Below, in pieces: positions 3,494 through 9,347 of a stretch of 17,582 bases of DNA (positions are counted from its first letter, which is position 1; each line of letters opens with the position of its first letter). The stretch covers positions 1-17,582 of the forward strand of contig CAYYJU010000013.1 of the NCBI GenBank assembly GCA_964472335.1, in the 5' to 3' direction. This DNA comes from an uncultured Candidatus Saccharibacteria bacterium. GTDB lineage: Bacteria > Patescibacteriota > Minisyncoccia > Phycocordibacterales > UBA9973. The position numbers and the translations under genes were made by a program. The notes under the pieces are model-generated. The model made no database searches, was not told the origin of the DNA, and saw only the letters and a program-made list of their open reading frames with translations.

Positions 3494-5245
3494 TTACGAA
3501 ACAAGGACAGCCTTTATGCGTCTAATACCCTGTGCCACAGATTCTTCTTTTTGAATTTTAAAAATTGATAGTTCGTTTGTATTTTTCACATGTGGACCAC
3601 CGCAAAATTCAAGACTAAATGTATCATTATTTACTTCAGGAGTTTTACCTATTGAATACACAGAGACCATGTCAGCGTATTTGACGCCAAATTCCATCTG
3701 AGCGCCTAGTTTTTCTGCTTCAGCTTTTGGCATTTCATGACGAGTGACATTTAGACTTTCTTTTATTTTTTCATTTACCAAGTCCTCTACTTTCTTTTTT
3801 TCTTCATCAGTTAATTTATGGTCACAAAGAAAATCTATACGCAAACGCTCCTCAGTGATATTACTACCTCTTTGTTTTATATTTTTATCCACTACTTGCT
3901 GAAGTGCAGCTAATAATAAGTGATGAGCTGTGTGAAGACGGATGGTTTTTTCATTATGATTTGCTAGTCCCCCTTTAAACATACCTGCAGATGATGTCTG
4001 AGATAATTTTTGATGTTCTGCCATCTTTTTATTAAAATCTTCTTTATCTATAGTCTGTCCTTTTTCTTTTGCTAGTTCTTCGGTTAGCTCTACAGGGAAG
4101 CCATAAGTAGTAGCTAAAATAAATGGGTCAGTACCCTTTTCAAATTCTTTTGCTCCTTCGTTTAAAGTATTTAAAAATCTTTCTTCTTCTTTTTGAAAAA
4201 TTGATTTAATATCTATGTTTTTTAAATCTGGATAAGTAGGTGAATATTTATCGACAAAAAATTTAATTAAATTTGTACTTAAAACTTTATGCGATTCTAA
4301 GGTGCGCATTTTAAATACTGCTCTTCTGATTAATCTCCTTAGTACATAACCCTGATTTTTATTTGCTGGTATAACACCATCGGAAATTAAAAAAGTGGCT
4401 GTCCTTGTATGATCTACAATAACTCTGATAGACTTTTCATCATACTTAAGAGAAGATTCTTTTACTATGTCTAATGCACCTTTTAACAGATCCGTGTCAT
4501 AAGCTGTTTGTTTACCTTGCATTACCGCAGTGATACGCTCTAGTCCTGCACCTGTGTCTACATTTTTTTGTTTTAATTTTCCAATTACTTTTCCATCTTT
4601 CTTTTCATATTCCATGAAAACATCATTCCATATCTCTATGACCCTCTCATCTTTTATTGCTTCCAAGAAATCCGTGTGTGACAAATCTCCGACATCTCCA
4701 GACATGTCATAAAACATTTCACTGCAAGGACCACATGGGCCATTGTCTCCTGGACTCCACCAATTATCTTCAGCTCCTAAGGCATAAATCCTGTTTTCAG
4801 GTATACCTAGGCTCATCCAAATCTTTTTTGATTCTTCATCAAAAGGAGCATTTTCATCTCCTTTAAAAATAGTAAAATACAGACGATTTATATCTAAACC
4901 TAATCCTTCTTCTTTATTAGTTAAAAACTCATAACTCCACTTTATCGCATCTTGCTTGAAATAATCTCCAAGAGACCAATTCCCCATCATTTCAAAAAAA
5001 GAAAAATGGCGCTTATCACCAATATCTTCTAGGTCTCCGGTGCGTACACATTTTTGTATATCTGCTATTCTCTTTCCCATCGGGTGAGATTGCCCCAAGA
5101 GATATGGAACCAATGGTTGCATACCGGCAGTATTAAAAAGTACTGATGGATCGTTTTCAGGTACGAGAGAAGCTGAAGGAATTATTTTATGTTCCCTCTT
5201 TTCAAAAAATTTTAAAAATCTATTTCTGATCTCACTTGAATCCAT
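3494..5245 (-). CDS. alaS: Alanine--tRNA ligase, short form ending after the editing domain
   Basis: N-terminal AlaRS signature (EIRNRFLKFFEKREHKIIPSASLVPENDPSVLFNTAGMQPLVPYLLG), WWSPGDNGPCGPCSE, and the editing-domain zinc motifs HTAHHLL and CGGPHV. It ends ...GIRRIKAVLVS*. I place the start at ATG 5245 (MDSSEIRNRF). The track start at 5311 is a TTG that overlaps the upstream gene. Confidence 0.9.
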   Translation of the reverse strand: MDSSEIRNRFLKFFEKREHKIIPSASLVPENDPSVLFNTAGMQPLVPYLLGQSHPMGKRIADIQKCVRTGDLEDIGDKRHFSFFEMMGNWSLGDYFKQDAIKWSYEFLTNKEEGLGLDINRLYFTIFKGDENAPFDEESKKIWMSLGIPENRIYALGAEDNWWSPGDNGPCGPCSEMFYDMSGDVGDLSHTDFLEAIKDERVIEIWNDVFMEYEKKDGKVIGKLKQKNVDTGAGLERITAVMQGKQTAYDTDLLKGALDIVKESSLKYDEKSIRVIVDHTRTATFLISDGVIPANKNQGYVLRRLIRRAVFKMRTLESHKVLSTNLIKFFVDKYSPTYPDLKNIDIKSIFQKEEERFLNTLNEGAKEFEKGTDPFILATTYGFPVELTEELAKEKGQTIDKEDFNKKMAEHQKLSQTSSAGMFKGGLANHNEKTIRLHTAHHLLLAALQQVVDKNIKQRGSNITEERLRIDFLCDHKLTDEEKKKVEDLVNEKIKESLNVTRHEMPKAEAEKLGAQMEFGVKYADMVSVYSIGKTPEVNNDTFSLEFCGGPHVKNTNELSIFKIQKEESVAQGIRRIKAVLVS

Positions 5246-5736: not shown

Positions 5737-6936
5737 TTATACAACTACTCCACCACCTAGGCAAATGTCACCATCATAGACTACTACAGACTGACCACTC
5801 GCCACCAAGACTGGTTTTTCAAAAATTATCTCAGCACTGTCTTTTGTTTTTATTTTAATTTTGCAAGATAAAAATTCTCCATGATAGCGAATCTGTGCTG
5901 TATATGTTTTATCTTCTTTTGGTATTTCTGAAATCCAATTTATACTCTGCAGTCCAAGATAAAAAGGTGTGCTTTCTTTGGTCTTCGCAACCAAAGCTGG
6001 GTCAGCTATATTCAAGACAGAGTGCGAGCCATGAGAAAGCATCACCTTTTTATCTTGGGAAACAACTAAAATATTTTTCTTTATATCTTTTGCTACAACA
6101 TAATAAGCTCCATCATTCGGGCTCTTTTTAGTGATTACGAAACCATGCCTTTCTCCGAGAGTATGAAACACGGCACCATCATGACGGCCAATCACTTCCC
6201 CGTTCTCATTTACCACATCACCCTTTTTTTCTTTTATGTAATGCTTTAAAAATTCTTTTAAATCAATCGCACCTAAAAAACAAATACCCTGACTATCATG
6301 TTTTTCAGCTACTGGTAATTTGAATTTTTTCGCTAACTTCCTAACCTCTGTTTTCTTTAGGTGTCCTATAGGGAATAAAATTTTAGACAGCTGTTTTTGA
6401 TTTAAAGTCCAAAGGAAATATGATTGGTCCTTGCTTGGGTCTACCCCCTTTAAAAGGCAAGAATTTGTTCTTTCTTCACCTTTCGCAACCAAAGCTGGGT
6501 CAGCTATATTCAAGACAGAGTGCGAGGTGTGAGAAAGAATCAAATTCTTGCGCATTGCATAATGCCCAGTAGCTACAAAATCCGCGCCCATAGAAAGTGC
6601 CTTTTTTAAAAAAGCTCCAAACTTTACTTCTTTATTACACATGACATCTGGGTTTGGAGTCCGCCCAGCTTTATACTCTCTTATCATATAGTCTGCTACT
6701 TCATTTTTATATACATCTTCAAGATCAAGTGCTAGAAATGGTATGTCTAAATACGCAGCCACACGCATGGCGTCTCTCTTTTCATCTTCTTCATTGCATT
6801 CTATGAAATCTGGGTGCCAAGTCTTTATAAAAACCCCCACTACTTCATAGCCTTTTTGTTTTAGTAAGGTAGCGGAAACAGCGCTATCTACGCCCCCAGA
6901 AAGCCCTACAAATATTGTCTGCTTTTTTCTTACCAT
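5737..6936 (-). CDS. mnmA: tRNA 2-thiouridine(34) synthase MnmA carrying two in-frame repeat insertions
   Basis: PP-loop SGGVDSAV, catalytic-Cys contexts PNPDVMCNKEVKF and DSQGICFLG, ATGHYA, KDQSYFLW, and C-terminal GQSVVVYDGDICLGGGVV. At 399 aa it is longer than typical MnmA because ..LSH(T/G)SHSVLNIADPALVAK.. occurs twice. Confidence 0.92.
   Translation of the reverse strand: MVRKKQTIFVGLSGGVDSAVSATLLKQKGYEVVGVFIKTWHPDFIECNEEDEKRDAMRVAAYLDIPFLALDLEDVYKNEVADYMIREYKAGRTPNPDVMCNKEVKFGAFLKKALSMGADFVATGHYAMRKNLILSHTSHSVLNIADPALVAKGEERTNSCLLKGVDPSKDQSYFLWTLNQKQLSKILFPIGHLKKTEVRKLAKKFKLPVAEKHDSQGICFLGAIDLKEFLKHYIKEKKGDVVNENGEVIGRHDGAVFHTLGERHGFVITKKSPNDGAYYVVAKDIKKNILVVSQDKKVMLSHGSHSVLNIADPALVAKTKESTPFYLGLQSINWISEIPKEDKTYTAQIRYHGEFLSCKIKIKTKDSAEIIFEKPVLVASGQSVVVYDGDICLGGGVVV
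5954..6058. repeat. Palindromic element copy A (~105 bp) inside mnmA
   Basis: Imperfect hairpin. The arm 5954-5969 (ccaagataaaaaggtg) is the exact reverse complement of 6043-6058. Further pairs are tgctttct/agaaagca, tgg/cca and tcgca/tgcga. The 45-bp core at 5984-6028 is identical to copy B. Confidence 0.85.
6457..6551. repeat. Palindromic element copy B (~95 bp) inside mnmA
   Basis: Imperfect hairpin. The arm 6457-6467 (gcaagaatttg) is the exact reverse complement of 6541-6551. Further pairs are ttctttct/agaaagaa, cacc/ggtg and tcgca/tgcga. The 45-bp core at 6482-6526 is identical to copy A. Confidence 0.85.
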
Positions 6937-9306: not shown

Positions 9307-9347
9307 AAATTAAAAAATACAGCTTTTTTAGCTGTATTTTTTAATTT
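9307..9347 (-). terminator. Perfect 17-bp hairpin, a likely intrinsic (bidirectional-type) terminator after the sigma-r4/HARE-HTH gene
   Basis: aaattaaaaaatacagc (9307-9323), loop tttttta, gctgtattttttaattt (9331-9347). The arms are exact reverse complements. The minus-strand transcript continues with ttttttatatt after the stem. It begins 14 nt after the upstream gene's stop codon (9361-9363). Confidence 0.7.

Follow-up and report, generated by a model that had tools for sequence, protein, structure and literature searches.

In Rickettsia, the Rickettsia palindromic elements (RPEs) are hairpin repeats (Ogata et al. 2000/2002, as summarised in PMC10969869), and they are reported to lose their repeat identity with time (PMC6649704, discussion). 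The mitochondrial genes of Nematomorpha contain long, perfect inverted repeats that are translated; arm-to-arm conversion has been suggested and template switching proposed for them, and their gain and loss are dynamic (PMC6649704). Quasipalindrome template switching is known from E. coli: at an imperfect inverted repeat, the nascent strand serves the polymerase as template, and the repeat becomes more perfect (PMC7202029). Here we analyse a 17,582-nt stretch of bacterial DNA (the window: positions 1 to 17,582 of contig CAYYJU010000013.1, assembly GCA_964472335.1), in which the tRNA 2-thiouridylase gene mnmA carries, in frame, a 105-nt palindrome that we call copy A. Judged from its sequence, copy A is a canonical full-length member of a palindromic repeat family of ~105 nt (family 1) of Candidatus Nomurabacteria. 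These are a group of ultra-small bacteria of the candidate phyla radiation (CPR).

We put at roughly 0.6 the probability that copy A is an inserted family-1 DNA palindrome whose arms are templated, whose core has been homogenised, whose foot has been re-templated and whose peptide is a tolerated passenger. Like RPEs, family 1 consists of hairpin repeats of ~100-150 bp in a tiny genome, with several families, with copies also outside genes and with no known transposase; it lies in frame in unrelated housekeeping genes and adds a conserved passenger peptide to surface loops of intact proteins. The features of the RPE functional class (size and hairpin, dispersal, stop-free in-frame insertion) are all found in family 1. 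The phylum differs (Patescibacteria rather than Rickettsiales), Rfam contains no RPE model, and the likeness is one of function, with no claim to membership of an RPE family. Unlike in RPEs, the arms of family 1 have undergone many double changes without losing their complementarity, and within a genome the cores are homogenised; the stems of sister families are built from local sequence, and the native loop is replaced, not merely extended.

The nematomorph palindromes share with family 1 an all-or-nothing perfection and arms that stay complementary while diverging between species, both arms being translated; a palindrome in rsmH of the genus, in which GFSF is paired with KENP, is of exactly the same kind. 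They differ in being wholly local gene sequence with no shared core, whereas copy A has a conserved 68-nt core present at many loci. Template switching predicts Watson-Crick double changes without intermediates, as well as stem growth into the flanks; it is, however, a mutational mechanism and not an element family, and it is invoked here from comparative patterns. Repetitive extragenic palindromes (REP/REPIN) and their RAYT proteins offer another likeness, in that the repeats are hairpin-forming, non-autonomous and ~100 nt long, and RAYT/IS200-like Y1 genes are abundant in the genus. REPs, however, are extragenic, bear a GTAG/CGTC tag and flank their RAYT gene, whereas copy A and six other sites lie inside open reading frames (ORFs), no tag could be established, and we found neither a cognate Y1 gene in the genome nor Y1 enrichment near the copies. 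Miniature inverted-repeat transposable elements resemble family 1 in being short and dispersed, with terminal inverted repeats, no transposase of their own and occasional in-frame fusion; those of the DDE type differ, since family 1 has no target-site duplication at the copies inspected and no parent insertion sequence, and the whole element is one hairpin. In the literature searched, which did not cover all journals, we found no description of coding palindromic elements in CPR/Patescibacteria.

The host gene is intact. Its product has a tRNA_Me_trans HUP domain at residues 7-222 (Pfam, E = 2.6e-72), a PRC-barrel at 227-294 and a C-terminal barrel at 329-398, matches the MnmA structures 9hlv, 2hma and 2der in the PDB at E ~1e-81, and keeps the PP-loop SGGVDS and both catalytic Cys contexts (DVMCNKE and GICFLG). 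By these marks the mnmA of the window is a complete MnmA, 69-79% identical in protein sequence to the orthologues of the genus; the source genome comprises 538 kb in 42 contigs and is ~90% complete. The minus-strand frame is open across the hairpin, where it reads ..VVSQDKKVMLSHGSHSVLNIADPALVAKTKESTPFYLGLQSINW.., and copy A itself encodes QDKKVMLSHGSHSVLNIADPALVAKTKESTPFYLG, which lies in the linker that joins the PRC-barrel to the C-terminal barrel. The two element sites of the gene, A and B, are gaps relative to solved MnmA structures and length-variable loops in relatives. In an AlphaFold2 model built from a 20-sequence alignment, both inserts are the least confident segments, with a predicted local distance difference test score (pLDDT) below 50; overall the model is of poor quality (mean pLDDT 61.5, predicted template modelling score 0.43) and too weak to place the inserts.

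The pairing scheme proposed in the initial annotation was borne out base by base. The outer arms, 5954-5969 (ccaagataaaaaggtg) and 6043-6058, are perfectly reverse-complementary; further in, with the t at 6042 bulged out, 5970-5977 is paired with 6034-6041, tgg with cca and tcgca (5985-5989) with tgcga (6023-6027), and the apex holds the mini-hairpin agctg-ggt-cagct at 5995-6007. In copy A a conserved core of 68 nt is joined, with a single bulged base, to terminal arms of 16 bp, and the bulge offset and core length are constant in all family copies. Folded as sense RNA, 5940-6070 reaches -50.6 kcal/mol, whereas its 200 dinucleotide shuffles come to -27.5 +/- 3.1 (z = -7.4; 0/200 as good); as DNA, on the plus strand, the values are -30.8 and -12.1 +/- 2.5 (z = -7.6). 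The apex mini-hairpin is peculiar to the window's genome, other copies of the same subfamily reading GACCGAGC instead of GACCCAGC. A scan of this genome for perfect inverted repeats (arm >= 12, loop <= 90) returned 72, against 3-11 seed matches in shuffled genomes. Copy A is among only ~10 that lie within long ORFs, most others being short and terminator-like.

Most of the 72 repeats are intergenic hairpins of 30-50 nt with an A-run, a GC stem and a T-run, such as that at 9307-9347 of the window, and they are probably bidirectional intrinsic terminators.

Family 1 is widely spread through the genus. BLAST hits occur in 30 of the 151 genus genomes searched, and an exact 21-nt inner-arm pattern, drawn from the stretch 6023-6041, occurs in 31 genome stretches and 67 metagenome stretches, the genome records being titled Candidatus Nomurabacteria, Paceibacterota or Patescibacteria. 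Coding copies occupy seven fixed in-frame sites in five genes, identified by Pfam: mnmA (two sites), tgt, leuS (two sites), murI and a gene for an S-adenosylmethionine-dependent methyltransferase. Both mnmA sites are common to many species of the genus, and at least 25 further copies are intergenic. At all seven coding sites the element has the same orientation and frame, giving the peptide ..LSHGSHS[VIN]LN...AEEST.... The other two sense frames carry stops, and the open antisense frames encode a peptide with a net charge of ~+5.7, which together account for the one-frame rule. The data also show that the family-1 element got into the surface linker of MnmA in a common ancestor of several of these species.

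At site A of one relative (L113), the linker SQNAYAEESNVLHWVELKDV resembles an internal-deletion remnant of the element, with the right half kept and the native length of 20 aa. The tgt insert of the window's genome was considered as a decayed third family-1 copy and rejected, as it belongs to another family, related but distinct (family 3, see below), whose second copy lies in polA.

Evidence on how the palindrome is maintained comes from an alignment (A1) of 57 family-1 copies, gap-free and drawn from the seven coding sites and intergenic DNA. The proposed structure is paired in 85% of its cells, against 71.6% in shuffles (0/500 reach 85%) and only 41-51% once the partners are shifted by 1-3 columns. 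In the long helix (columns 6-36 with 82-110) pairing stands at 91.7%, while the five flanking columns on each side pair in 42%, which is background; the inner-stem pairs (23-30/87-94, 33-36/82-85 and 38-41/75-78) are 92-93% paired, with compensatory changes. The 5' half of the inner stems is the most conserved part of the family (mean entropy 0.30 bit). Double changes occur in 25/28 long-helix pairs, with 294 cells changed on both sides against 26 on one side, counts that overstate the number of independent events because the sequences are related. Swaps from A-U to U-A and from A-U to C-G dominate the stem changes, and G-U and U-G pairs make up ~16% of the non-Watson-Crick cells, which is their chance share. 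Between copies, arm identity is ~0.5-0.6, while pairing within copies is ~90%.

The double changes, the chance level of G-U pairs and the A-U to U-A swaps together point to complementarity at the level of DNA, not to selection on an RNA fold. Furthermore, variability shows no excess at codon position 3 and intergenic copies are as conserved as coding ones, which makes the peptide a passenger. These pairing and codon-position statistics show that family 1 evolves as a DNA element, and not as a peptide or an RNA structure.

A second copy in the same gene, copy B, matches the family profile at E = 4.5e-21 (copy A, by nhmmer, at E = 2.2e-26). Copies A and B share an identical 45-nt core (6482-6526 = 5984-6028), with a loop identity of 1.00. 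The stems of copy B differ from those of copy A yet are compensated: copy B has CACC/GGTG where copy A has CGGC/GCCG, with GCAAGAATTTG/CAAATTCTTGC as its outer arm. Across the family, core identity is 0.87 for copies at different sites of one genome, 0.76 for copies at one site in different genomes and 0.75 for unrelated pairs. Family-1 cores therefore resemble each other by genome and not by site, which shows that they are homogenised within genomes. At this locus, the core of copy A would have been homogenised by gene conversion with copy B, 498 bp away.

Features of the copy A hairpin and its surroundings (window positions unless a genome and contig are named; A1, alignment of 57 family-1 copies)
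Feature	Position	Strand	Remark
mnmA (tRNA 2-thiouridylase), 399 aa, intact	5737..6936	-	host of copies A and B
Copy A, full-length 105-nt palindromic element	5954..6058	-	equals columns 6-110 of A1
Outer stem, mRNA-5' arm, sense ccaagataaaaaggtg, coding S-QDKKV	6043..6058	-	exact complement of 5954-5969
Single bulged base between outer and inner stem	6042..6042	-	column 22 of A1, conserved family-wide
Inner stems, 5' half, sense TGCTTTCT-CA-TGGC-TCGCA	6023..6041	-	A1 columns 23-41
33-nt apex, mini-hairpin at 5995-6007	5990..6022	-	identical in copies A and B
Inner stems, 3' half: agaaagca partner, 4-bp helix (5979-5982), TGCGA helix	5970..5989	-	A1 columns 75-94
Outer stem, mRNA-3' arm, sense cacctttttatcttgg, coding T-PFYLG	5954..5969	-	non-native sequence
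Copy B, second family-1 copy	6452..6556 (about)	-	beta-hairpin loop after GHYA, catalytic domain of MnmA
Family 4 copies	G000 C23:2546-2615, C11:3523-3578, C12 ~3830-3965		outside window

The outer stem of copy A had been noted as looking like ordinary MnmA sequence, and the insertion was thought to be either the full 105 bp, leaving an unusually short native linker, or one whose palindrome had been extended into host sequence. At the level of the family the first proposal stands: pairing spans A1 columns 6-110, that is 5954-6058, and falls to background beyond. Among 93 family-1 copies, outer arms of 15-17 bp form a sharp mode, and the murI that bears the element exceeds the empty murI of the window's genome by exactly 35 aa (105 nt). 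The arm consensus AAAAATNNNAAAKYAG recurs at unrelated loci, intergenic ones included, with TAG in the intergenic consensus where coding copies have CAG. The native linker is indeed short, since ~10 residues (..ISHSNILTNI..) of empty-site relatives are missing from the mnmA with copy A. The second proposal finds support as well, though for no more than the outermost ~7 bp.

Relatives with empty sites allow the native sequence to be read directly. Empty site A reads VS-QNKNISHSNILTNIRIENT-NW, i.e., VS-Q[ND]K[NK] at the left, and empty site B reads GHYA-QNKKNNLL-KG; at the position of the 3' arm, element-free relatives have ..IRIENT-NW and no PFYLG. Core-less relatives thus keep the left Q[ND]K codons with neither PFYLG nor the complementarity, and the outer stem is in this sense tied to the element. 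The ends of copy A show no target-site duplication, and empty and filled sites differ by replacement, not duplication.

Within copy A, a log-odds position-weight test places TCC CAA GAT (columns 4-12) with the native profile by 11 bits, of which roughly 5 are estimated to come from two bases outside the stem, and AAA AAG GTG (columns 13-21) with the element arm profile by 4.7 bits. The 5' arm divides into 7 native-like outer nt (6052-6058) and 9 inner nt (6043-6051) that agree with the arm of the family; on the 3' arm, the outer 7 nt (5954-5960) complement the native-like Ser-Gln-Asp codons. The three bases of the outer 7 bp that depart from the family arm are complemented on the opposite arm. 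On these data the outer stem is a hybrid, its inner ~9 bp agreeing with the family arm and its outer ~7 bp with native codons, compensated on the opposite arm.

A different division has been weighed, in which only a core of ~70-85 nt is repeated and mobile and the 16-bp outer stem is native SQDKKV together with a mirror copy made at or after insertion; site A would then have read AAAAAGGTG before the core arrived. We consider this rather unlikely. A mobile core alone sits poorly with a family-1 arm of fixed length and with a consensus common to unrelated and intergenic loci, nor does it account for the fit of columns 13-21 to the element profile. Identical arms stand at two different leuS sites of one genome, and in two relatives (L153 and L181) the element arm lies side by side with an intact native SQNKN. 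What keeps it in play is the left-hand sequence of the empty sites (VS-Q[ND]K[NK] at A, GHYA-QNKK at B), the 11-bit native fit of columns 4-12, and the behaviour of the other hairpin families described below: family 2 at site A uses native CAAAACAAAAAC codons as its arm, and the arms of families 2, 3 and 4 are wholly different between loci.

The native 20-aa linker of site A (..SNILxN.RI..) is itself encoded by a 7-11 bp inverted repeat in empty-site relatives (among them L116, L102 and L121; in L116, CAACATTCTCA/TGAGAATGTTG). An origin of the element from this linker was considered, as the two share SHS.L, TTTCTCA and TAACGAAT, but it was rejected because local alignment scored against shuffles gave p = 0.03-0.25.

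Could the hairpin instead be under selection as an mRNA structure, adjusting how mnmA and the other hosts are translated, how stable their mRNAs are or how nucleases process them? The sense RNA is certainly very stable (-50.6 kcal/mol) and its stems covary, but the covariation is of the wrong kind: G-U pairs are no commoner than chance, and the dominant swaps pass through no viable RNA intermediate. The same element also lies in intergenic DNA and in unrelated genes, Rfam holds no match, and many species have empty sites. A role at the mRNA level, which the initial annotation had raised, thus finds no support, and we regard it as very unlikely. Known RNA families and ribozymes were also rejected, copy A yielding only sub-threshold look-alikes of microRNA precursors in Rfam and family 2 none. 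An archaeal-type bulge-helix-bulge intron or translational bypass fared no better: the motif is absent from the predicted fold, and all coding copies are open in one frame, which argues for read-through.

Scarcely more credible, and if anything less so, is the proposal that the insert is a selected protein module (LSHGSHS..LN..), for instance an interaction peptide shared by tRNA-handling enzymes. Seven coding sites do share frame and orientation, and three of the hosts act on tRNA; MurI is a host too, however, and the stops and the antisense charge of +5.7 suffice to explain the single frame. Variability at third codon positions does not exceed that at first or second ones, and intergenic copies, with TAG in that frame, are equally conserved. 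Both inserts have a pLDDT below 50, albeit in a weak overall model. That the hairpin arose by chance, or as an inverted chimera during assembly or amplification, can be dismissed, because the same codon positions are occupied in independently assembled genomes from several unrelated studies and sites and 0/200 shuffles fold as well, which leaves only the general point that amplification can create inverted chimeras.

Returning to the inserted, templated palindrome, a history of the locus may be outlined as follows. The inserted unit would be the element with most of its stem. It is read through in its only stop-free sense frame and has replaced ~10 native linker residues; such read-through would give peptides such as SHSVLNIADPALVAK. 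The arms would then be kept complementary by arm-to-arm templating, most likely through template switching during replication (quasipalindrome correction). At its foot the stem adjoins the Ser-Gln-Asp codons, which are selected in the protein, so that correction may fix native-like bases there and copy their complement onto the far arm. On this account, the outer stem looks like ordinary MnmA because correction fixed native-like bases on the protein-constrained side, the foot having been re-templated after insertion. The element itself may be tolerated selfish or by-product DNA of no evident benefit, whose hydrophilic peptide would protrude from the loop and be neutral for the protein.

Several observations weigh against this account. 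We infer the mobility of family 1 from sequence distribution, and template switching at copy A from comparative patterns, the mechanism being known from E. coli reporters (PMC7202029). The window's genome has only two family-1 copies by BLAST and family profile, both in mnmA, and no transposase is linked to the element. Target-site duplications are absent at copy A and at the intergenic copies inspected. A PF01797 search of the window's genome returned no Y1 gene, and the 800 kb around family-1 copies contain 6 Y1 genes, each at a distance of 2-6 kb, a density equal to background. At both mnmA sites the left arm looks like native Q-N-K codons, and a purely local origin of the whole 16-bp stem retains some probability. 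To these is added the relatedness of the A1 sequences stated above.

Y1 HUH genes (PF01797, IS200/RAYT-like, ~210-250 aa) are found in 76/100 genus genomes, with up to 13 in each (including L127-L131), numbers that are unusually high for genomes of 0.5-0.9 Mb. Mobilisation by Y1 proteins was rejected, given that 8/13 element-bearing genomes have a Y1 gene against 76% overall and that the family profile has no match near five Y1 loci.

Family 1 is accompanied in the genus by other hairpin families. Family 2 is unrelated to it (core GAGTCCGGATATTTTT...GCCTC, GAGTCCGGATATTTTTCTGCTGAAAAATTCCTCAAGACTCGCGCCGTCGCGCTCCGTAGCCTC; in-frame peptide KSPDIFLLKNSSRLAPSRSVAS) and occurs in 103/161 genus genomes, with up to 18 candidate copies per genome, though with none in the window's genome and no match in Rfam. 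Its arms of 15-22 bp are perfectly complementary and completely different at every locus (L199-L228). At mnmA site A of two relatives (L037/L041), the arm consists of the native CAAAACAAAAAC codons and has a perfect complement of 16-20 nt. Family 3 (RRHSH[SP]VLEG.DLSG.SKDSSE) has two in-frame copies with different arms in the window's genome (G000), outside the window, in polA (G000 C2:2951-3038) and tgt (C25 ~4056-4221). It shares TCGCACTCTGTyCTGGAA with the family-1 element of mnmA and may be distantly related. Family 4 (core CCGCTTTACCCGCAAGCGGG, peptide ALPASG), again in this genome, lies in frame in a 601-aa PheT-like ORF, a 596-aa FAD-oxidase-like ORF and leuS, with differing arms; in the assembly as supplied, the leuS copy is broken by ~100 N, and the reading frame differs on the two sides.

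Palindromes also arise where no shared core is present. In rsmH of the window's genome (G000 C20:4777-4852, outside the window), a 16-bp perfect inverted repeat pairs the conserved GFSF(L/M) codons with downstream (K)KENP; across the genus its arms measure 11-16 bp and the outermost pair covaries between species. It is a coding palindrome consisting purely of gene sequence. Families 2, 3 and 4 and the rsmH repeat, with arms copied from their surroundings, speak for the templated reading of copy A, since they indicate that such a process is at work in this lineage. Loops A and B of mnmA in relatives (L097-L126, L149-L196) hold at least six other, unrelated hairpin-forming inserts, among them PPDKGGLRGV, FAQSLGPSLRSATPS, NPFYFELPEGPNPVIGGRAQGRKIGRG and AFALGDKRTGNPR, and relatives in other genera of the taxonomic family have strong hairpins in the same MnmA loops (z down to -8.9). 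In E. coli, 3' exonucleases restrain quasipalindrome template switching, and SbcCD attacks hairpins. Among 31 genus genomes we found neither the ExoVII large subunit (PF02601), which is present in 12/14 control genomes, nor SbcD_C (PF12320), which is present in 5/14, and we take this as a background permissive for palindromes.

These observations raise the tentative and somewhat doubtful possibility that the genus, perhaps along with many CPR bacteria, has an undescribed, hairpin-centred copying process in which small conserved apex cores move or are copied from locus to locus, stems are synthesised from adjacent sequence and coding DNA is overwritten, a class of elements that could be called 'apex-mobile, stem-local'. 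Stems and cores would then be kept perfect by templated correction while protein loops are remodelled, and copy A would be one product among others. What drives such a process might be that the lineage has lost its hairpin-policing nucleases, or else one of its many Y1 HUH proteins.

In-frame repeats in essential genes have so far been regarded as a peculiarity of Rickettsia, and actively perfected coding palindromes as one of hairworm mitochondria; the mnmA locus combines both. The genus is a free-standing bacterial lineage with hundreds of sequenced genomes, in which empty, filled, decayed and re-templated sites are found in the same protein loops. Comparative genomics could thus address how hairpins grow into coding sequence, how repeats are homogenised in tiny genomes where ExoVII and SbcD are missing, and how much insertion protein loops tolerate. 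Annotation is affected too: conserved CPR proteins become longer through such inserts, their alignments are interrupted at fixed positions, and an insert can pass for a lineage-specific domain.

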